A DNA stretch of 64,000 nt. It comes from Octopus vulgaris (Eukaryota). A program made the position numbers and the translations under genes. The DNA is taken from assembly GCA_951406725.2 (NCBI GenBank), contig OX597828.1, positions 34,720,001 to 34,784,000 on the forward strand, given 5' to 3'. The first letter of the stretch is position 1. Each line of letters starts with the position of its first letter. The notes under the pieces were generated by a model, which worked only from the letters and a program-made list of their open reading frames with translations, was not told where the DNA came from and searched no databases. This document shows, piece after piece, positions 11,781-60,040 of the stretch.

Positions 11781-11781
<1 letters not shown>

Positions 11782-11811
11782 GTGTGCAGCCCTGTGTGGC
11801 TATTAAAGAAA
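11781..11811 (+). mobile_element. Extreme 3' end (31 bp) of the Tx1 LINE inserted in (TCTA)n
   Basis: TGTGTGCAGCCCTGTGTGGCTATTAAAGAAA matches the 3' ends at 36881-36906, 54270-54299 and 55200-55231, with TCTA repeats on both sides. Confidence 0.75.
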
Positions 11812-11969
11812 CATATCTATCTGCATATATATATATATGTTCTGTGTGTTTGCGCTTGTGTGTATGTGTGCGTGTATGTGTGCGCTTGTGTGTGTATGCG
11901 CGTGTGTGCATGTGTGTGTGCGTGCATGTGCCTCTGTATGTGTGTGCGCGCGCTTGTATGTATGTATGA

Positions 11970-15522: not shown

Positions 15523-15754
15523 ATTTCTTTACTACCCACAAGGGGCTAAACACAGAGGGGACAAACAAGGACAGACAAACGGATTAAGTCGATTACATCG
15601 ACCCCAGTGCGTAACTGGTACTTAATTTATCGACCCCGAAAGGATGAAAGGCAAAGTCGACCTCGACGGAATTTGAACTCAGAACATAACGGCAGACAAA
15701 ATACGGCTACGCATTTCGCCCGGCGTGCTAACGTTTCTGCCAGCTCGCCGCCTT
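15523..15754 (-). mobile_element. Full-length tRNA-derived SINE, family B, with 17-bp TSD
   Basis: A/B-box-like head (GGCGAGCTGGCAGAAACGTTAGC; GAGTTCAAATTCC). TSD TATACTCAACAATATAT at 15506-15522 and 15755-15771. Near-identical to 34443-34672. Confidence 0.92.
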
Positions 15755-17327: not shown

Positions 17328-18129
17328 ACACACACGCGCGCGCACACAAACAAATGATTTGTTGGAGCAACTGTAGTCTATTGAAGTGAATATAGTAGAT
17401 ATTTTCTGCAGACTAACGGTGTGATAAAATATGAATTCGATCATAAATCCACGAAATTTATCACGGCTCATCTGTGCCACCCTTACATACCTGATGATAA
17501 CATAAATATATTTTATTAACATTACAGTTATAATATCAAATTTCAAATTTTGACACAAGGTCAATAATTTTAGGGAGTTAATTGCATGATTAAATATTAT
17601 ACGATTTCAGTTCGCAGTTTTTCGAAATAAGGATTGAAGTTAAACAAAGTATCCTGTTTGAGAGGATTAATAAATTTCGTTATTTATCATTAGAAGTGTT
17701 TGTGCACCCTTTTCCAAGAAGCAAATTAAGTCAATAAATGTCTCTCCGATGCAGCTTAGCAAGCGATCTTGCTAGTGATGGACATACGATAGAATAAAGC
17801 TATAGATTTAAGCGGGAAACTGCTTTGCCACCAGCAATTTTTTTTTTAGATATCTGCATAAACTAGTGTCCTCTACGTTATGTTTAATGGAGAATATCAA
17901 AAGAAGATAAAGAATTACATACTGAGATTATATTCTAGCTCGAAGCATCATCAATTATGTTTCTGCTCACACATATGACCCCTTTCATATTCTAATCCAA
18001 GCATAGATTTGTTTTTAAATGTGTTTAAAACATAAGTATAGCTTAAATCTTTTACTTCTACGAAGAAATCATGACTTCTTTTAAACACCAAGTGCACTCT
18101 ACAATATCGTATTGATATTTGTCTCCTAT

Positions 18130-18455
18130 GTGGTTAGAGCGTCGAGCTTACGATCGTGAGGTTGTGAGCTCGAATCCAGGACCGGGCTGCGTGTTGTGTT
18201 CTTGAGCAAGGCACTTTATTTCACGTTGCTCCAGTTCACTCAGCTGTAGAAATGAGTTGCGACGTCACTGGTGCCAAGCTGTATCGACCTTTGTCTTTCC
18301 CTTGGATAACACTGGTGGCGTGGAGAGGGGAGGCTGGTATGCATGGGCGACTGCTGGCCTTCCATAAACAACCTTGCCCGGACTTGTGTCTAGGAGGGTA
18401 ACTTTCTAGGTGCAATCCCATGGTCATTCATGACCGAAGGGGGTCTTTACCCTTT
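18130..18455 (+). mobile_element. tRNA-derived SINE, family C
   Basis: tRNA-like head GTGGTTAGAGCG...GAGCTCGAATCC and central GTGTTCTTGAGCAAGGCACTTTA block. A second copy lies at 58201-58486. Confidence 0.85.
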
Positions 18456-18907
18456 ATGTGACCTCACATCGGTCCCAAGTAGGTGTATGTACCCGGGTTA
18501 AAAAGCCACATTATGACATAGTATATTGGGACAAGTTCAATTCAAAGACGCTCCGACACAGAATGATTCCCAGCAAACATAACACATCACAATTGTTTTC
18601 ATTGATGCTTTTACGAAAACCGTGAACGTAAGATCTTCACATCTTGGCCTATGAATATTTCAATTTCCTTGTGCTTTTTATTGCATCTCATGTATCGGGT
18701 GACGGAAAACTGAACAGAAAACCTATACACATCTTTATCCTATTTTTTGAAGACACCATCCATATAGAAGAAAAAAAAACACAGAAAAGAAACTACATAA
18801 GACGCAGATATGGGCGTCTGGTTTAGAGATTTGTTTTGCGATCACGAGGTTTCCAGTTCAGTCTTGTGGGTGAATTTGGTAGATGGAAACTGTGTGGAAG
18901 ACAGTCT

Positions 18908-19374
<467 letters not shown>

Positions 19375-19559
19375 AAACACAAAGTGTAACACCAACTAAT
19401 GAATAACAGTAAAAGAGAAGTTACGCATTCACTTTCATTAGCTCACAGTTGTTTCTGCTATGAATAAACGCGAACCCAGAGTTGGGTTCTCGTATTCCTC
19501 GGAACGATTTAAGATGGGATACTTATAGCAGAAAAAGCTTATAAGTTGATAAAAGAAAT

Positions 19560-19747
19560 CAAGTAATGCTATTCCTTTTGTGCATCAGGTACTTGGTTGA
19601 TATTTCCTGTTCCTGGATTGCAAACGTATACCCTTCAAAGTGGGAGGTAGCAATCCGGCTATCGATCCATGATAAACTGCTTCGATGATCGATGTTACTA
19701 TCATCACGGACCTTTCTGTTAACATGTCTATGCATAGTCTTCTGCTC
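19560..19747 (-). mobile_element. R4/Dong-clade (RLE) non-LTR retrotransposon fragment
   Basis: SSLSWIDSRIATSHFEGYTFAIQEQEISTKYLMHKR matches the R4/Dong EG...AIQ(D/E)Q.I.T motif. The 5' end abuts (TACA)n. Confidence 0.75.
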
Positions 19748-20835
19748 ATGTATGTATGTATGTATGTATGTATGTATGTATGTATGTATGTATGTATGTA
19801 TGTATGTATGTATGCTTGCATGTATGTATGTAAGCTTGCATGCTTGCATGTATGTATGTATGTATACATGTATGTGTGTATGTATGCATGTACACATGTA
19901 TGTATGCATGTATACATGTATGCATGTATGCATGTATGCATGCATTATGCATGCATTTATGTATGCATGTATGTATGCTTGCATGTATGTATGCATGCAT
20001 GTATGTTGTGTGTATGTATGTATGCATGCATGCATGCATGTATGTATGTATGTATATATATGTATGCATGCATGCATGTATGTATGTGTGTATGTATACA
20101 TAGATGAATTAGATTATAGGTTGTTAAGAATTACATATGTACACTATCGCAATAACAGTATGGATTCAGTGTACTATGAGTATTATATGATCATAATATA
20201 TACCCTATAGGTATATAATACCCTCCATAGAATAGATTAGACGTCCACAACAGAACACAGCGGATTAATGAATTGGAGTACTGTGGATCAACAACGGATT
20301 ATCAGTACAGGACTAATATTAGGACACCAACAACACATGTAATACATAGACTCAATTAGATTTGTAAAACTATGGATACAAGCATTATATTAATATATTG
20401 AGACAAATAGGATTTCATTGCCGGATTACTATGAAAAATTATAGATAATCTATAAAGTGGATTATATACCACTGGAATTATGGGTAACTGTCTTCTACCA
20501 TGTAGCTTTATGTTGCTACTGGTAAGATATATGCCGCAGATTCTTGAATGTAATAAAAATGTAAGAAACAAAATTCTGTGGGGTGGGTGGGTGAGAGGGA
20601 GAAATCGAGAGGGAGAGAGAGAGAGAGAGAATAATCTGATTTTCTTTCCTTTATAAGAGTTATGCATCGAGGTTAAATATCTCTTAGAGAGCCACAACTT
20701 CTTCCGCGTTGTCGACCTATAAAAGAGAACATGTGCTCTGTGTATTTTGTATGCATACTATTCATTGGGTTATATCTACACACACACACATATGAAACAG
20801 AAAGTGTAAGAGAGGCAGACACAGAGATAAGAGCG

Positions 20836-20872
<37 letters not shown>

Positions 20873-21523
20873 ACACACCGATCTGTATATATGTAAACGT
20901 ATATATGTGTGTATAGTGTCTGTGAAAGCAAGTATATATATATGTACATACATATACACGCGTTCATACACACACAAACACACACTCATTTATGCTTCAA
21001 ATATTTTGTCTTAAGGTAGAGAGAAAGCGGGATCGAGTGTTCTCTCTCTCTCTCTCTTTCTTTCTCTTTCTCTCTCTCTTTCTTTATCTCTCTCTCTCTC
21101 TCTCTCAGACATCTTTGCCTTGCTGACTTCTTTGGAGAATGTTCCTTCTTACTGGAATTACATATTCGCAATGCGAAGAACATCTCTTCAAGAGACACAT
21201 TCGTTAAGCTCCAATTTCTCTCTGCGAGTCTCCACATTATACCCGACAGGTATACTTACCGAAAATCTCTTAATGTAAGCAGATTTCTTTTAGATGTGAA
21301 AATCCTGTGAAATTCTCAGCCTACAACAGCGATTCTATTACTTTAGACTTCACACGGGCTTATGTGAATATGCAGATGGTGTATGCATATATATGGCCGT
21401 GCCGACGCGCCCTATATATTTGAATAATACCTATATATATACTGTTACATATACACACAATTACATACATATATTATGTATATACACAATTATATACATG
21501 TTATATGTATTCATGTAGGTGCA

Positions 21524-22049
21524 TATATATATGTGTGTGTGTACGTGTGTACCTATATGTGTGTATATATATATACGTATATATGTGCGTGTGTATATAG
21601 ACGCAGGAGTGGATGTGTGGTAAGTAGCTTGCTTACCAATTACATGGTTCCTGTTTCAGTCCCACTGATGGACTTTAGGCAAGTGTCTTCTACTATACCC
21701 TCGAGCTGAAGAAAGGCTTGTGTGTAGATACACATACAGACATACACACACACACACACACACATATATGTGAACACACACACATATATGAGAACACACA
21801 CACACATATGTGTGTGTGTGTGTGTGTGTATGTCTGTATGTGTATCTACACACAAGCCTTTCTTCAGCTCGAGGGTATAGTAGAAGACACTTGCCTAAAG
21901 TCCATCAGTGGGACTGAAACAGGAACCATGTAATTGGTAAGCAAGCTACTTACCACACATCCACTCCTGCGTCTATATACACACGCACATATATACGTAT
22001 ATATATATACACACATATAGGTACACACGTACACACACACATATATATA
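21524..22049. repeat. Perfect inverted duplication, 244-bp arms, 38-bp spacer
   Basis: 21524-21767 is the reverse complement of 21806-22049 and includes a diverged family A SINE head with the same private substitutions in both arms. Confidence 0.95.
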
Positions 22050-22085
22050 CACACACACACACATATATATGTGTGTGTATTATGT

Positions 22086-22310
22086 GTGAGTATATGTTTA
22101 TGTGTCTGTGTTTGTCCCCCCCCCCAACATCGCTTGAGAACCGATGCTGCTGTGTTTATGTACTGGTAATCTAGCGGTTCGGCAAAAGAGACCGATAGAA
22201 TAAGTACTAGGCATATGAAGAATAAGTCCTGGAGTCGAGTTGCTCGACTAAAGGCGGTGCTTCAGCACGGTCGCAGTCAAATGACTGAAAAGAGTAAAAG
22301 AATAAAATAG
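22086..22310 (+). mobile_element. Family A SINE 3' half (head at about 21600-21722)
   Basis: CAACATCGCTTGA...GCGGTTCGGCAAAAGAGACCGATAGAATAAGTACTAGG...AATGACTGAAA..AGTAAAAGAAT. Confidence 0.85.
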
Positions 22311-22319
22311 TGATACGTA

Positions 22320-22377
<58 letters not shown>

Positions 22378-22737
22378 AAAGTATAAGAAATTTCTCTAAA
22401 AGTAACCGGTTTCTCGCAAAAACATCTATGTATGCATGTAACCTACGTATGAGATATATAAAGCAAGCAAAATGTACTTATTCGTCTGTAGATCGAAGCA
22501 TGATCAACAGCTTTATTCGAACCTTATTGGCTTCTCATCAGAAATGTCTACATCAGTTTCACCAATCCTAGAAAGAAAAATAAAAAAACAAACACAAAAA
22601 AATCGCAGCCAATCTGTTTATGTACGTACAGAAAAGCTGGAGCAACTAATTTGCATACTGCATGCATTTAACAGTTTGTGTAAATGTGTATGTATGTATG
22701 TATGTATGTATGTATGTATGTATGTATGTATGTATGT

Positions 22738-23147
22738 CGCTTCTATTCTTAAATTATTAGAAATCTTCCTCAGAGGAGGGAGCCGGTTTCCAGCAAAGAT
22801 ACAAGGTTCCATCTTTGGAGTGTAGTTAATACAGACAATTTCTCATTTGGAACTTGAGAAAAGTCTTGCATATTTTTACATGAGAGAATTCAAGCAGGTT
22901 GCTAACAAAGCAGCAAGAATCTCTCATGGAGAATTTCTGAAATGTCTTGCAAATCTTCACTGTGCCACTAATAGGTTGGATTTGAAGAATCCGCATCAGT
23001 TTCTTTTGTTCTTTTACTGCGAAGCCAAGTGTTTCTAGGTTTTTCTGCAAATTTGTTGGTACGTAACCTAATGCACCTATGCTAATAGGTTCTAATGAGA
23101 AGTCATGGTCAGGGTACGAGAGCTGTAAGTTTTGCTTTAATTCGCCA
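22738..23147 (-). mobile_element. R4/Dong-clade LINE 3' end inside (TACA)n
   Basis: YGELKQNLQLSYPDHDFSLEPISIGALGYVP...LQIQPISGTVKICKTFQKF is an RLE endonuclease C-terminus. TACA repeats lie on both sides. Confidence 0.8.
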
Positions 23148-23327
23148 TATGTATGTATGTGTGTGTATGTATGTGTGTGTGTATGTATGTATGTATGTAT
23201 GTATGTATGTATGTGTGTATGTGTGTATGTGTGTATGTGTGTATATGTGTGTGTATATGTGTATGTGTGTATGTGTGTGTGTGTATGTGTGTGTGTGTAT
23301 GTGTGTGTATGTGTGTGTGTATGTATG

Positions 23328-23790
23328 TGCAGATCTGTATGTTTTATGTATGCCTTCTCATGCATATAGTTACATATCTAGACATGCTCATATATATTTA
23401 AATGATAAACTTCTGGAAAGTTTTACATTTTTTTACAGTTTCAATGAAGGATTGGATCTGTAGCCTTCGAATTAGCCTTCTCCTTTCTGGTTTTGAGTAG
23501 CCAAATTTCTCAAGAGTGGTATTTAGGCAGTGAGTTAAAAATCCCATGGCCCCAATAATTACGGGTATAAACCTGAACTTTTAATCTGGATAGAGTAACT
23601 GCAGATTTTTCAATAGTTAAACATAGGTGTTCTCTTTTTCTGTGATTTCAGCTTTATGTTAACATCTGTTGGGCAGCTAATTTCCACAACTGTGCATAGT
23701 TTCTCTTCTCTATCCCAAGTCATTATATCAGGTCTGTTGTGTTTACATTTTATTGAGATGTTCACTAGGACATTCTACCAGTCTGTAGTA
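23328..23790 (-). mobile_element. R4/Dong-clade LINE RLE domain and 3' end inside (TACA)n
   Basis: Manual translation: KCKHNRPDIMTWDREEKLCTVVEISCPTDVN...EKENTY...NLQLLYPD.KFRFIPVIIGAMG, which carries the PD-(D/E)xK restriction-like endonuclease motifs. Stops are present. Confidence 0.85.
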
Positions 23791-23796
23791 TGGTTG

Positions 23797-23832
<36 letters not shown>

Positions 23833-24300
23833 TGTATGTATGTATGTATGTATGTATGTATGTATGTATGTACGTATGTATGTATGTATGTATGCCTGCA
23901 TGTATGCATGCATGTATGTGTGTGTGTGTATTAGTATGTACGTATGCAAGACATGTTCGCAAATCTACAGTAACAAGCGTGTCTTTATATGCAGAAAGGT
24001 TCCAGTATGTTTCGCGATTTCTCTTCCTCCAATATTTAGAATGTTTTGCAACACAAGGTGGAATCGAACTCATGGGCGTATCACCTTGCTTGGCATCGCA
24101 CCTCCGGACACCCTCATCGTTGTAATTAATGTTGTTAACATTCCACTTAAGCAATTGGAAGGTGATATATTCAAAGAAATCCTGAAGAGTGAGGAATTCC
24201 GGCTCTCTCTCTTCAGAACGCCAGACAACCATCCATGAGAGATGGGTAGAATCTCTAATTTTCCATATGTGAAGAGGGTTGCAAGACATTTTAAAAGCTA

Positions 24301-24815
24301 TTAACCTTTCGTTGGCTGACGGGGTCACTTGGCGGGGTCAGCAAATTTTAAAAGTTATGCAATTTTTTTTACAGTTATTAATTAAATGACTTTATAGCTC
24401 ATGACTTTTATTGCCAATAGTTTATGTATGCACATACAAATTCTGAGTTAGAACTTTCCAGTCATATGGATGTTATAGCCTAAAATAGGGTCATTGGGGG
24501 CCAACTGGACCCCATTGGCCTTCTGTTCTCTTTTCGGATATTCTCAATGCAAATTGACATATTTCAAATGTCTACTCCAAAATCATGTATAGCAAAAGAG
24601 CCAATGTAGATGCACCATACGAAGTTTCAGCACCAGATTGTGATTCTGATAGTGAGGTATCTGATATAATAATAAATGAAGAAAGAATCCAATGATGATT
24701 TTAGTAGTGATAACAGCGAAACTGGTCATGAAGATGGCAATAATGTGGTTGGTAAACATAAATGTACAGCATGGCTCACTGAAGCACCCAAACGTAGACG
24801 AAATGTTCGCCAAAG
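24301..24815 (+). mobile_element. piggyBac-like transposon 5' fragment
   Basis: Starts TTAACCTTTCG and has GGGGTCA/GACCCC subterminal motifs. An acidic N-terminal stretch is followed by GKHKCTAWLTEAPKRRRNVRQ, similar to PGBD4-type N-termini. Confidence 0.5.
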
Positions 24816-25122
24816 TGGGCTTCTACAATGGCTTCCGTTGATTAAATCAGTGCCAGCAAAATTCAATATGCAATAGTTGTGCTAGACTCCATCATACATT
24901 TCTGTCTTTTTGTGCATTCCGGCTCTTAAGATTCTGAGTTCAAATCCAGCCGAGACTGATTTTGCTTTTCATCATTTCTGGGTCGATGAAATGAGTACCA
25001 GTTGAGCACTGAATTGCACCCGCCCTTGAAATATCAGGCCTTGGGCCTATAGTAGAAAGGCTCTATATGTGTGCGTCTGTGTGCACGTATATCAATGTGC
25101 GCAAGCGTGCGTTACATGTATA

Positions 25123-25328
25123 CAGTAATCCCTCGCCATATCGCGGTTTACCTATCTCGCGTTCAGTACATCGCGGATTTTTCTGGCGAATATATGTAAA
25201 TTTATATCGCGGGGGCCTCGGTATATCGCGGGCTTCTGCAGCCGATAGGTATTCACATTTTTTTAGATTTTAATTATTTCTGTGGGAGGTTTTGGAACGT
25301 AACACCCGCGATTGTCGAAGTATTACTT
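25123..25328. mobile_element. pogo/Tigger-like MITE
   Basis: TA-CAGTAATCCCTCGCCATATCGCGG ... CCGCGATTGTCGAAGTATTACT (imperfect TIR), with internal TATCGCGG repeats. Confidence 0.75.
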
Positions 25329-25739
25329 TGTGTGTGTGTGTGTGTCTGTGTGTCTGTGTGTGTATACTTGCACGCATGTGAATGTGTGTTAATGTACATG
25401 TGTGTGTTCGTGTGTGTGCGTGCGTGTGCGTATATATGTCTGCGTGCACGGGAAGTAATGCACGAATATATGCATGCATGCATGTTTATTTACATCAGTG
25501 CAGGTTAAAATTAGTGCATGAAAACAGAAATTCATGCAGCATTCACAGCCGACTGAATTATCTCCCTTTTTAATCCGAAAAGATCCGATTAAAGAAATGA
25601 CACCAGAAAAAAAAAAGCAACAACTGGATTCGATATAATGTTTTGTAAAGATTTGCTCGAGCGTGACCAAAATGCAATGAGCGTAATCAATAAAAGAAGA
25701 TCGAAACGAATACAAACCTATATAGCCACATTTACATAT

Positions 25740-26112
25740 TCTTTTATTCTTTTACTTGTTTCAGTCATTTTGACCTCGGCCATGCTTGAGCAACGCCTTT
25801 AATCGAGCAAATCGACCCCGGGACTTATTCTATCGGGTTCTTTCGCCGAACCGCTAGTTTAAGGGGACGTAAACACACCAGCATCGGTTGTCAAGCAATG
25901 ATAGGGGGACCAACACAGGCATACAAACGTATACACACATACATATATACATATACGATGGGCTTCTTTCAGTTTCCGCCCACCAAATCGGGCTTTGGTC
26001 GGCCCGAGGCTATAGTAGAAGACACTGGCCCAAGGTTTCACGCAGTGAAGCTGAACCCGGAACCATGTAGTTGGTAAGCAAGCTACTTACCACACAGCCA
26101 TTCCAGCGCCTA
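25740..26112 (-). mobile_element. Family A SINE, near full length
   Basis: Head GGCTGTGTGGTAAGTAGCTTGC...GGTTCCGGGTTCAG, internal microsatellite, and tail TGAAACAAGTAAAAGAAT. Confidence 0.9.
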
Positions 26113-34442: not shown

Positions 34443-34672
34443 ATTTCTTTACTACCCACAAGGGGCTAAACACAGAGGGGACAAACAAGGACAGGCAAAG
34501 GGATTAAGTCGATTACATCGACCCCAGTGCGTAACTGGTACTTAATTTATCGACCCTGAAAGGATGAAAGGCAAAGTCGACCTCGGCGGAATTTGAACTC
34601 AGAACGTAACGGCAGACGAAATACCGCTAAGCATTTCGCCCGGCGTGCTAACGTTTCTGCCAGCTCGCCGCC
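34443..34672 (-). mobile_element. Full-length family B SINE with 15-bp TSD
   Basis: TSD AGTCGGTATATATAT at 34428-34442 and 34673-34687. Confidence 0.92.
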
Positions 34673-35354: not shown

Positions 35355-35694
35355 TAGTTTTATTTTTATAGCGTGCTTTCACTTCACTACCGAGCGCAGC
35401 TCTGTGTGCCTTGGGTATGTGCTGTGATTTGTTGTGATGCTCTGATGGTTATTGTATGGAAAGTGTTCTGCGTAGGATGTGTGCAGTGCCTAGTAGTGCA
35501 ATTTTCTGTATGTTATATGTGTTTGTAAGTCCTGGTGTTTTTGTTATGTATTTGTCTGAATATTTTTTTATCATGCCTAATGCACCTACTATGATAGGAA
35601 TTGTTTCTGTTTTCAGATTCCACATTCTAGTTACCTCTATTTCCAGGTCTTTGTATTTTGAGAGTTTCTCCATTTCTTTTAGAGACACGTTGTC

Positions 35695-35764: not shown

Positions 35765-35933
35765 TACTATTCATGTCACTGCTTGGAATGATTGATTGAT
35801 TGATTGATTCTAGTTTCAGCTTATGAGCTGTGGCCATGCTGGGGCACCGCCATTTAATAATAATAACATCAAAAAATACCTTAGGAATGAGAACCCGGGT
35901 TCGAAAATTCCTCAAGACACCTGATGAAGGCTG

Positions 35934-36906
35934 GTTAGGCGATCCATTTGCTGCCAACACCCGCTAAATTGAGGGCTAGGCATGCTCTGGTTGATGATGC
36001 GCATACATGCACTGAGGCTGTGACATCTCCGGCACTACATAGACGCCGGTGAACAGGTGTGGATGCCATTTGTGCGGCGCGCTTTCCTGCAGCTCGTCTC
36101 CTTGGCTGAACTGCAGTCGTGGATCAAACAGAGACCAAGGCTAGGCGATTGGCACCGCATGTGTCGCGTTGCTCACAAGCAACTCTGCCGTCCGGGACCA
36201 AACTTGTGCGACTTCATTACAATAAAGACGTTCTATAGATGATTAGTGGAGGGGAGGCGCGACGACGTTCTCGGGCAGAATCTGGGCGTCGACGAGGAAC
36301 ACCTGACCCGCCTGTTCAGGACAACTTCCGGGCCGGGACCTACGGACAATCACCAAATATCCCTCGCCTGGCAGTGCTATTGAGAAGCAATACCTGTTCG
36401 GGATAAGCTCTACAGGCACAGTTCGAGACACACCGGACCGACTTGCCCGAGATGCGGTCAGAGCGACGAAACCGTTCTGCAGGCACTCGTGCAGTGTCCA
36501 ACCATTTCGGATCTGTGGGCTTGTGCCGAACGGCTGCTGTCACTTGTGGGACGAGTCCGCCTGTCAGCCGAGTATATCGTGAAAATTGCTCCGCCACCTT
36601 CCCTGGTGATAGAATGTGTGTGGTGGACTCGAGCGAAAGGATTAGAGACAAACACTTACCTCTCTGGCCAATCGCTCATCAACTTTTTCAAGAATGGAGA
36701 GGCAGGTTTTGTTTCGTGAAAGTTTCAAAAAAAAGGTGGGTGAATGTGGCAAAGACGGTACGTGCGAGGGACGAAACCACTTTGAGCATGACCCTGTAAA
36801 ACGAAAAGAGAGAGAGAGAGCACTTTGCTCTCATGTGTTTATTCCCTCTCTGAGGCTACCGTGGTCTTTTCCGTAGGCTTTCAGCCCTGTGTGGCCAATA
36901 AAGAAA
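35934..36906 (+). mobile_element. Tx1-clade (L1 group) LINE, 5'-truncated, ORF2 C-terminus and 3'UTR
   Basis: GC-rich frame VRRSICCQHPLN*GLGM...AWQCY*EAIPVRDKLYRH...TCPRCGQSDETVLQALVQC (CCHC knuckle, H>Q)...ECVWWTR with stops. It ends CAGCCCTGTGTGGCCAATAAAGAAA followed by (TATC)n. Confidence 0.88.
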
Positions 36907-36907
36907 G

Positions 36908-50559: not shown

Positions 50560-51730
50560 GCCTTTGTGTTATTTACCATGTCTGAGTTCAAATGGAGCTT
50601 AGGTCAAGTTTACCCCCACCATCCATTCCGGGTTGGAATCAATATCATAAACACCTAGGTTCAATCAATTCATCTCAGTCCTAAAATGACTGGTTTCGTG
50701 CTAATATGAAATAAAATCATTATTATTATTATTATTACTATGGTGACGTATCGTCTGTGCGTCGGACTAAATGCTTAGTAGCATTTCGTTCGTATTTACG
50801 TTCCGGTTTCAAATGTCACCCGGGTCGACGTTGTCTTTCATCCTTTCGGAATCGATAAAATTAAATACCAGTCAAATAGTTGATTCAGCATAATCCCGGG
50901 ATAGTTGAACCGGGGTAAATTACCCCAAATGGGGTAAAATGAAATTATTGGGGGTAATGGGGACTCATTAGACATATCTAAAATTATATTTAAAAAAAAA
51001 TTTGTTCCTTGTTATCCGTGATTTTCTTCCATTCGAATCAAGGGGGTAACGTCGGTGTAAACAAATATATTTTGGGGGTAACCGGTTAAAAAATTTCCCT
51101 AATAATCGACTCGCCCTCTCTCATTAAAAACCTGCTGGCACTGCCAAAATTTGAAACCATTATTATTGTTAAGGCGGCGACATCATTTCGGGGTCAATAA
51201 ATTAAGTACCATGAAATACTGGGGTCGATATAATCAACTAGTCCCCTCCCACAAAATTTCAGGCCTTTTGCCTTTAGTAGAAAGTATTATTGAGACAGAA
51301 TAGCTGGCAGAATAGTTGGTGTACCGGACAAAGTGCTTCGGTGGTGTTTTGTCCGTCTTTTCGTTCTAAGGTCCAATTCCACTGAGGTCGACTTTGCCTT
51401 TCATCCTCTCAGAATCGATTAAATAAGTACAGATTGAGTAATGGGGTGGGTCGACTAGTACCCTCCCTCAAAATTTCAGGCCTTGCGCCTATGGTAGAAT
51501 GGATTATTATTAAAACAGCAAGCTGGCAGACTCGTTAATGAGTCGGACAAAATACTAAACAACAGTTCTTCCGGCTCTTCAAGTTCTCAGTACGAATTCC
51601 TCCAAGGTCGACTCCCGCCTTTCATCCTTTCAGGGTCGATAAAAAAGTGTCATTTGAGCACTAAGGTTGATGTACCTGAGTAGGCCCCTCCCCTCAAAAT
51701 CTCTGGTCTTCTGCTCAAATCAGAAAGCAT
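50560..51730 (+). mobile_element. Head-to-tail cluster of family B SINEs (with a hAT-like MITE piece at about 50896-51100)
   Basis: At least five diverged units joined through ATT tails, and a GGGGTAA-rich insert. Confidence 0.7.
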
Positions 51731-53947: not shown

Positions 53948-54457
<510 letters not shown>

Positions 54458-55099: not shown

Positions 55100-55231
55100 C
55101 CTTTCTTCCCTTTTACGATCCCTCTTGATCGAAAACCTACGCCACCCCCTTTTTTTCATCCCCCCAAAAGAAAAGCTCTACCTTGTAACTTGTCCCATCT
55201 GTGTGCAGCCCTGTGTGGCCAATAAAAAAAA
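55100..55231 (+). mobile_element. Tx1 LINE 3'UTR fragment followed by TATC repeats
   Basis: ACGATCCC..TTGATCG...AAGCTCTACCTTGTA...CAGCCCTGTGTGGCCAATAAA matches 54160-54299. Confidence 0.8.
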
Positions 55232-55502: not shown

Positions 55503-55692
55503 ATAACATAAGGGACATTAGCCAACTGAATATGGCTAGGGACAGGGCAGGGTGGTGGGGGTGTCACTGTTGCATTTAGCCCCAGGCGAACATCAACGTC
55601 ACCAGATAGGCCGGGCTAAATGCAACAGTGACACTCCCACCACCCTGCCCTGTCCCTAGCCATATTCAGTTGGCAAATGTCCCTTATGTTAT
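55503..55692. repeat. 80-bp-arm hairpin with a 30-bp loop
   Basis: 55503-55582 versus 55613-55692: one mismatch and one G-T position. Confidence 0.95.
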
Positions 55693-56150: not shown

Positions 56151-57670
56151 AATAATAATAATAATAATAATCCAGCGAGCTGGCAGAATCGTTAGCACGC
56201 TGGACGAAATGCTTAGCGGTATTTCGCCCGTCTATACGTTCTGAGTTCAAATTCTGCTGTGGTCAAATTTGCCTTCCGTCTTTATGGGGTCGATAAATTA
56301 AGTACTAGTCGATGTAATCGACTAGTCCCCCTCCCCGCAAATCTGAGGCCTTTTGCCCCCAGTAGAAAAGATTATTCTTAATGCAGCGAGCTGGCATACC
56401 AGATAAAATGCTTAGCGGTTGTCCTTACGTTCTTAGTTCAAATTCCGCCGAGATCTACTTTGCCTTTCATCCTCTCGGGGCCGATAAAATGAGTACCAGT
56501 GGAGCACTGGGGTAGATGCAATCGATATGGTCCCTTCTACGAAATTGATGGCCCTGTGCCAAAATTTGACGCCAACATTAGATTTGAAACTAAATGGAAA
56601 ATTCAATCTGGAAAGAAGAGTGAAGTATATAGGGTCCGGTGCTACGGATAGAATAGTTAAAAGTTGTCTCATCTGAAATAGATACATCTCAACTCTTAAC
56701 ACAAGCACATACACGCACGCATTCTCGCGCTATCTCTCCCCTTCTCTCTCTCTCTAACACATACACGCTCATGCGCACATGCAAACACGTGTGCCTATAT
56801 GCATTCATACATACCACATAGATTCACACTTGTGGATCTTAAAAATATTTATGGATGTACAAAGGCGGCGAGCTGACAGCTTCGTTAACACGCCGGACAA
56901 ACAACTTAGCAGCATTTCATCCGTTTCCACGCTCTGAGTTCAAATTCCTCCGAGGTTGAGACTTCGTCTTTTGTCTTTTCGGAATCGATATAGAAAATAC
57001 CAGTTTAGTACTGGGATCGCTGTAATCAACTGGTCCCTTCTCTCCATAGTTTTACGCCTTGTGCCCATTGTAGAAAGGAAATTTATTAATATACAAACGG
57101 CGACAATTTGGCGGAGTCATTAGAGCGCCGAAAATAGGAAATGCGTTGCGACATTCGTTCTGGTTGTTTACATTCTGAGTTCAAATCCTGCCCATGACAT
57201 CTTTACATTTTATCCATTCGGGGAGTGGCGCTTCAATAATAATAATAATAATAATAATAATACGGTGGAATGCATGGAGATGATGGATTCACTCCATGTG
57301 TATTATCTGACTTTTATTATCGATTCCGAATAAACTGATTAAAAATACAAAGAGGAGAAGCAAAGATAAGATTTGAACTCGAAACATAGGGATAATGAAC
57401 TGCAACTTCAGTGTTCTAGTAGAATCTGCCTATTGATATTACACACACACATGGCGGCGAACTGGCAGAAACGTTAGCACGCCGGGCGAAATACTTAGCG
57501 GTATTTCGTCTGCCGCTACGTTCTGAGTTCAAATTCCAACGAGGTCGAGTTTGCCTTTCATCCTTTCGGGGTCAATAAATTAATTACCAGTTTCCTTACT
57601 GGGGTCGATCTAATCAACTGCCCCCTCCGCAGAAATTTCAGGCCTTGGTGCCTAGAGAAGAAAAGAATAC
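55870..57670 (+). mobile_element. Cluster of about six family B SINEs, all + strand
   Basis: Repeated heads at about 55870, 56173, 56383, 56863, 57097 and 57453. Confidence 0.75.
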
Positions 57671-58530: not shown

Positions 58531-58757
58531 TCGAGCTGACAGAAATGTTAGCACGCCGGGCGAAATGTTTAGCAGTATTTCGTCTGCCGCTACGTTCTGA
58601 GTTCAAATTCCGCCGAGGTCGACTTTGCCTTTCATCCTTTCGGGATCGATTAAATAAGTACCAGTTACGCACTGGGGTCGATATACTCAACTTAATCCGT
58701 TTGTTTGTCCTTGTTTGTCCTCTCTGTGTTTAGCCCCTTGTGGGTAGTAAAGAAATA
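58531..58757 (+). mobile_element. Family B SINE with Tx1-like tail
   Basis: Colinear with 15523-15754. Confidence 0.88.
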
Positions 58758-58839
58758 GAAATATGTATTTTGTTTGTCTTTACGTTGTGAGTTCAAATTC
58801 CACCGAAGTCGACTTTGCCTTTCATCACACAGCCATACC

Positions 58840-59816: not shown

Positions 59817-60040
59817 ATTTCTTTATTGCCCACAAGGGGCTAAACATAAAGGGGACAAACAAGGACAGACAAAGGAATTAAGTCGATTACATCGACCCCA
59901 GTGCGAAAATGGTACTTTATTTATCGATCCCGAAAGGATGAAAGGCAAAGTCGACCTCGGCGGAATTTGAACTCAGAACGTAACGGCAGACGAAATACGG
60001 TTAAGCATTTCGCCCGGCATGCTAACGTTTCTGCCAGCTC
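59817..60040 (-). mobile_element. Family B SINE with Tx1-like tail
   Basis: Colinear with 34443-34672. The tail ends GGGCAATAAAGAAAT. Confidence 0.88.

Follow-up and report, generated by a model that had tools for sequence, protein, structure and literature searches.

The 64,000-nucleotide stretch of Octopus vulgaris DNA analysed here (the window) is part of a 2.8-Gb genome and carries, at 58532..58757 on the plus strand, a copy of a short interspersed element that we call SINE B. This copy consists of a tRNA-like head, a central body and an apparently LINE-derived tail, and it lacks the first 7 nt. By BLAST, it is 90-93% identical to the other window copies and 93-100% identical to 30 genome copies. 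Its head contains an A-box-like motif of a putative internal Pol III promoter at 58537..58551 (reference position 13, placed by alignment with the copy that ends at 34443) and a B-box-like motif at 58599..58610 (a motif match at reference position 75); the two lie 62 nt from each other, and runs of four T are absent. At 58574..58590 lies the site around position 50 of the head, which is the insertion site of a LINE family described below (family N) and the junction of tandem SINE arrays. The LINE-like tail of about 65 nt (58692..58756) was delimited by local alignment to 19 LINE tails, with the tail of family N added later, and by comparison with shuffled sequences. It includes a predicted terminal hairpin at 58733..58745, with a 4-bp stem and a 5-nt loop preceding the A-rich end, which is recognized by covariation across families, its folding energy alone being weak. 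A headless SINE fragment starting from reference position 51 adjoins the tail at 58765..58826; all of these features are on the plus strand.

Four SINE-tail copies occur in the window, with ends at 58756, 34443, 15523 and 59817. Two are full-length minus-strand copies, at 34443..34672 and 15523..15752, bounded by exact target site duplications (TSDs) of 15 and 17 nt, respectively, as the initial annotation had reported. The fourth, also on the minus strand (59817..60040), has the tail end described for it, an AATAAAG variant, and a flank match of only 8 nt. Two older SINE variants, A1 and A2, are found in the window at 51180-51290, 56170-56380 and 57455-57670 and at many genome loci; they have the head and body in common with SINE B and carry different tails, in which one can discern by eye a small hairpin whose loop is similar and whose stems are compensatory. 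Thus, the whole SINE lineage may use the same radiation of LINEs. The window also contains a near-perfect, MITE-like inverted repeat (55510-55690, with arms of about 80 nt around a short spacer) and two minus-strand reading frames, at 35452-35694 (flanked by (ATT)n) and 22829-23146, that have no Pfam match and presumably resemble the C-terminal restriction-like endonuclease region of R4/Dong-type LINEs.

SINE B is a dispersed, non-coding, high-copy element of about 230 nt with TSDs. An 18-nt motif from its tail has 105,429 exact matches in the genome (control: 0), the first 30 of which are all SINE copies. The head folds with a z-score of -2.1 and a long inserted hairpin; ARAGORN called no tRNA gene and there was no relevant Rfam match. 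The head is described as tRNA-like with A- and B-box-like motifs, and Pol III transcription is presumed. The 61 non-array SINE ends examined all lack poly(A). Of the 72 elements that have an intact 5' end, 32 show TSDs, which are 8-22 nt long with a median of 16-17; a few of these are likely chance matches in simple repeats. In an unbiased sample of 30 SINE ends, eight lay at position 50 of another SINE head, three at position 17, six at other GGTA-like sites and nine elsewhere, while four were unscored. Insertions prefer GGTAT-like and ATAT-like sites, a preference that may come from the endonuclease, from pairing of read-through RNA, or from both. SINE B may already carry a name; an exact search with three motifs of its body gave no match in the MetaSINE supplement.

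The window contains four LINE-type 3' ends (at 54299, 55231, 36907 and 11812, all on the plus strand) that belong to one family, family B, which targets (CTAT)n. The element at 54030..54299 is a 5'-truncated 3' UTR of an older family B subfamily; it has (CTAT)n on both sides, contains no coding sequence and is 80-100% identical to 40 scored genome copies. Several genome copies extend upstream into the same ORF2 end as a remnant at 35932..36907, which comprises the ORF2 C-terminus with a zf-RVT domain (Pfam E 2.4e-4), a 3' UTR with an internal deletion, and the terminus followed by (CTAT)n, and which has 84% DNA identity to intact copies. Because the genome copies and this remnant connect them, the element at 54030-54299 is part of a family of coding LINEs. 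The other two ends are short (55163..55231) and very short, the latter lying within (CTAT)n (11781..11812). A protein search identified many family B copies with an open ORF2 frame of 1159 amino acids, whose nearest named homologue is from Argonauta (65%). In 20 of 20 fetched copies the 3' end runs into (CTAT)n, and (CTAT)n-type repeats are also found on the 5' side; thus, (CTAT)n is the target of the family and not its tail.

The initial annotation had noted that the end of SINE B (58714-58756) aligns with the terminus of the window's LINE (54257-54299). The ungapped identity of 34/43 was reproduced, and 200 dinucleotide shuffles of the 43-mer gave best ungapped window matches of 23-29 (mean 24.6). 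The premise that this 43-nt block is the true LINE terminus also held, since all 20 fetched family B copies with an intact ORF2 end there.

Family B is one of a radiation of related LINEs. Searches with the zf-RVT profile and with copies of the elements recovered further lineages, here called A, C, D, E, F, G, H, I1-3, J and K, as well as others. None of the more than 12 lineages sampled has poly(A), which was seen behind none of 43 long LINE loci, and ORF2 identity among the intact lineages is 55-80%. As 150 of about 18,000-26,000 ORF2 candidates per search were scored, a LINE family closer to the SINE may be unsampled. LINE TSDs are mostly 16-20 nt. The families differ in target. Simple repeats serve B ((CTAT)n), H ((CT)n) and G, which lies before (ATT)n; two families use SINE heads, N at position 50 of SINE B and F in a second abundant SINE; I2 has a single 17-nt site, and family A is dispersed. 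The ends of family F, which has an intact ORF2 of 1140-1150 amino acids, precede the same base in the head of the second SINE in eight of eight cases (loci L239, L240, L304, L307, L309 and L317-L319). The site of I2 lies in an unnamed repeat and is flanked by a 17-nt TSD (L145-L147, L328 and L335).

The ORF2 sequences assign these LINEs to the L1 group (L1 plus Tx1) of non-LTR retrotransposons. Exo_endo_phos (an N-terminal APE domain), RVT_1 and zf-RVT are the only Pfam domains of ORF2, and RNase H is absent; among proteins of solved structure, human L1 ORF2p scores best (209 bits), with R2 at 75 bits or less. Within the group, assignment to Tx1 over L1 is favored, though not proven. A zf-CCHC match is present in seven of seven ORF1s scanned, above the curated cut-off in four; a CCHC zinc knuckle in ORF1 is typical of Tx1 and is not known from the ORF1 of vertebrate L1. 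Against five YTX2-named proteins ORF2 reaches 299-354 bits, compared with 209 for human L1 and 322-328 for two unnamed L1-like proteins. In a FastTree reverse transcriptase phylogeny of 143 rows built without a named L1 reference, the octopod families and their cephalopod homologues are monophyletic (support 100), and the five vertebrate proteins named YTX2 fall outside their group. The Tx1 clade is described as having a target preference for microsatellites or other repeats, a description that the octopus families fit (PMC4494074).

The SINE tail matches a D-family tail, D2, at 48-51 of 58-60 positions, family C at 41-43/46, family N at 38-41/46 and the window's family B at 39/48; the best alignment scores are 64-83 points, those of shuffled controls at most 39. 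Among the LINE tails examined, none matches the whole 65-nt SINE tail, which counts against the carrier model given below: the upstream block fits D and F, and the hairpin part fits C and A. A Watson-Crick hairpin directly before the A-rich end is present in 29 of 29 tails (27 LINE and 2 SINE) as against 10.1 expected from shuffles, a test that overstates the significance because the tails are related. At stem position 3, all four Watson-Crick pair types occur across the families, that is, the changes are compensatory. Single hairpins fold weakly (z from -1.2 to +0.8), a point against the structure. By alignment, the SINE tail is homologous to the LINE terminus of an L1/Tx1-group radiation without poly(A), and from the conservation we infer stringent recognition of the hairpin and tail by ORF2. 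The end motif also contains AATAAA, which might have been retained for polyadenylation and not for binding by ORF2.

This last point also speaks for a different reading, in which the tail was caught once by template switching, relaxed recognition lets every ORF2 of the radiation move any RNA with an A-rich end, and the hairpin and AATAAA serve 3'-end formation or stability. The stem sequences do vary freely between families, and A1 and A2 still show a similar hairpin by eye with different tails. However, poly(A) occurs in no insertion examined, the insertions stop exactly at the motif, and the hairpin is retained in the most frequent SINE variant, where the motif reads AGTAAA. Thus weighed, relaxed recognition appears unlikely, and stringent recognition by an L1/Tx1-group ORF2 is preferred.

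Alternatively, the carrier might be the window's own LINE family, with SINE targets differing because the 3' end of the SINE RNA itself pairs with nicked DNA. In favor of this are the 39/48 tail identity and the long span over which B was active, its older copies having 80-89% identity to the one in the window; in addition, a TAT/TAC core lies behind the junction in 40 of 43 B ends and 36 of 61 non-array SINE ends (background 0.19). However, 35 of 43 family B ends lie in (CTAT)n as against 0 of 130 SINE ends, the tails of C, A and D score above that of B, and the B hairpin has a different loop, of 6 nt. The pairing implied by the initial annotation, of the SINE with the LINE family of the window, is thus not sustained: by target and tail rank, family B is probably not the carrier, and we regard the version with RNA-DNA pairing as a shade less credible than relaxed recognition. 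Least plausible is a carrier outside the L1 group (CR1, RTE or Dong-R4, all reported as active in O. vulgaris; PMC13282606, Table 1), the tail likeness being a relic: the SINE tail 18-mer matches SINE copies in 30 of 30 unbiased cases, every traced non-SINE holder of the tail lies behind a zf-RVT ORF2 or its UTR, and TSD lengths agree with those of L1/Tx1-group families, although the tail ranking of carriers covers sampled L1/Tx1-group LINE tails.

A better candidate from within the L1/Tx1-group radiation is family N. It was found among 98 genome-wide matches in which an intact SINE head is followed by foreign sequence; 16 of these were fetched, and three began the same LINE 5' end. In the 40 of 123 family N candidates that were scored, the position-50 site of the SINE flanks 27 of 30 5' ends and 10 of the 11 3' ends found. 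The N tail has a four-pair hairpin, and the FastTree phylogeny places N with A, C and E (support 100) and separate from B. Mean pairwise identity is 0.896 for N and 0.907 for SINE B; the values come from different regions, so the comparison of ages is a rough one, by which the two appear similar in age. Counting against N are its tail score, which is below those of C and A, and the base added before the target, which is T for N and A for the SINE. Most unbiased SINE ends lie off position 50 (only 8/30 are there), which argues against N as the sole carrier. An intact ORF2 is missing from all 20 N copies that were fetched. LINE searches with SINE-type junction motifs returned SINEs alone (30/30 and 30/30 matches). 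Eight N copies (L449-L451, L454, L459, L460, L463 and L470) have one and the same variant SINE head on the 5' side, suggesting that it moved along with the LINE from a single master, much like the snRNA heads of some crocodilian Tx1 families. A further N copy, at a position-50 junction of a SINE, sits just outside the window, about 6 kb upstream (L456/L485, G000:C15).

We consider it likely that SINE B is carried by an L1/Tx1-group ORF2 and that this protein recognizes the hairpin together with the A-rich terminus; N, the best candidate, or a close relative in the A/C/E/N clade is probably the main carrier. A Pol III transcript of the SINE would present its hairpin and A-rich end to an ORF2 of this clade, which would nick the DNA and prime reverse transcription, producing a TSD of about 16-17 nt without poly(A); family N would nick SINE heads at position 50. 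The initial claim of mobilization by a Tx1-clade LINE is thereby upheld as to an L1/Tx1-group tail without poly(A), a shared terminus and a covarying hairpin, with the Tx1 label favored. In a comparison of age, TSDs and targets between LINE and SINE, which the initial annotation had put forward as a check, family N shares the insertion site of the SINE and is of similar age, and LINE and SINE TSD lengths are similar; the target of B does not agree.

In 45 of 72 elements, from a sample enriched for arrays, SINE B forms arrays in which one headed unit is followed by headless units starting from position 50; some arrays end in an older SINE variant. One variant of the position-50 junction has 8,736 exact matches in the genome, and a second array junction, at position 17, occurs 1,909 times. 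TSDs flank whole arrays, and neighboring units are 0.84 to 1.0 identical, which fits a mix of sequential insertion and single events. Arrays of five to seven units spaced 183-184 nt apart, 98-100% identical except for the last unit, are found at L258-L263 (G000:C1, about 4.607 Mb) and L254. The TSDs around whole arrays and the 98 heads flanked by foreign sequence at first favored single insertion events as the origin of arrays; this is no longer favored because family N makes position 50 a real target, and homologous 5' joining looks alike. Repeated SINE insertion at position 50 with homologous 5' joining would produce arrays of one headed and several headless units; template jumping would be an alternative route.

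A wider picture can be drawn tentatively, and we rate it somewhat below an even chance: an animal L1-group radiation without poly(A) would combine a hairpin code of structure only with a separate DNA target for each family and a closed loop between N and SINE B, in which the SINE borrows its tail. If the loop exists, the SINE head provides more than 100,000 landing sites, and each partner multiplies the targets of the other, with SINE arrays as a result. The system could also explain the tandem arrays and the abundance of a repeat that ranks among the commonest in octopus-like genomes. It is an open question, for which three plant and algal SINEs have supplied the arguments, whether the ancestral enzyme of the L1 group recognized a specific RNA tail or poly(A) alone (PMC3747384). 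The animal case provides a natural passenger along with numerous related families that differ in hairpin and DNA target, several of them represented by dozens of copies whose ORF2 is intact; RNA recognition would be separable from target choice by swapping tails between natural elements.

The annotation of O. vulgaris repeats lists 80 L1-Tx1 families, 13 of them recently active, and attributes 11.6% of the genome to SINEs; no analysis of SINE-LINE partnership, tails or targets was found in its text, and the words 'partner' and 'tail' are absent from the supplement (PMC13282606, PMC8967140). No report of a Tx1-tailed SINE in octopus or another animal was found in a search of mainly open-access papers.

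Tail-sharing is the rule for SINEs with CR1, L2 and RTE partners, and three of 58 listed pairs are L1-clade, all from a plant or alga (PMC3747384). These are ZmSINE2 and ZmSINE3 with LINE1-1_ZM (maize/sorghum) and SINEX-3_CR with L1-1_CR (Chlamydomonas), in which the shared tail has been read as a sign of stringent recognition (PMC3472496, PMC3747384). In these pairs, as in the octopus, the last 45-50 nt are conserved and a compensatory hairpin is common to an L1-clade LINE and a tRNA SINE (PMC3472496, PMC3747384). Unlike the octopus pair, which has no homopolymer tail, they end in poly(A) or poly(T); the octopus elements differ further in that the host is an animal and the LINEs are target-specific, one family targeting the SINE itself.

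In crocodilians, SINEU and Tx1-Mar represent a SINE-Tx1 pairing by shared target and concurrent age, with tandem SINE insertions, some Tx1 families that have SINE-like heads, and neighboring Tx1 families that target microsatellites or other repeats, all of which is similar to the octopus case (PMC4494074). However, the SINEU elements have snRNA heads, poly(A) and a Mariner target, and no LINE sharing their 3' end was found in that study, whereas the octopus SINE shares its tail, lacks poly(A) and targets its own head (PMC4494074). Bivalve tRNA SINEs are also molluscan and have swappable LINE tails of 35-61 nt (72-95% identity) and a tandem-like organization; their partners are CR1, CR1-Zenon, L2 and Nimb, with no L1 or Tx1 among these four (PMC11481361, PMC4824008). 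Thus, tail-sharing with L1-group LINEs was known from plants and algae, and Tx1-SINE pairing without a shared tail from crocodilians; the octopus case is that of an animal SINE that shares its tail with L1-group LINEs.
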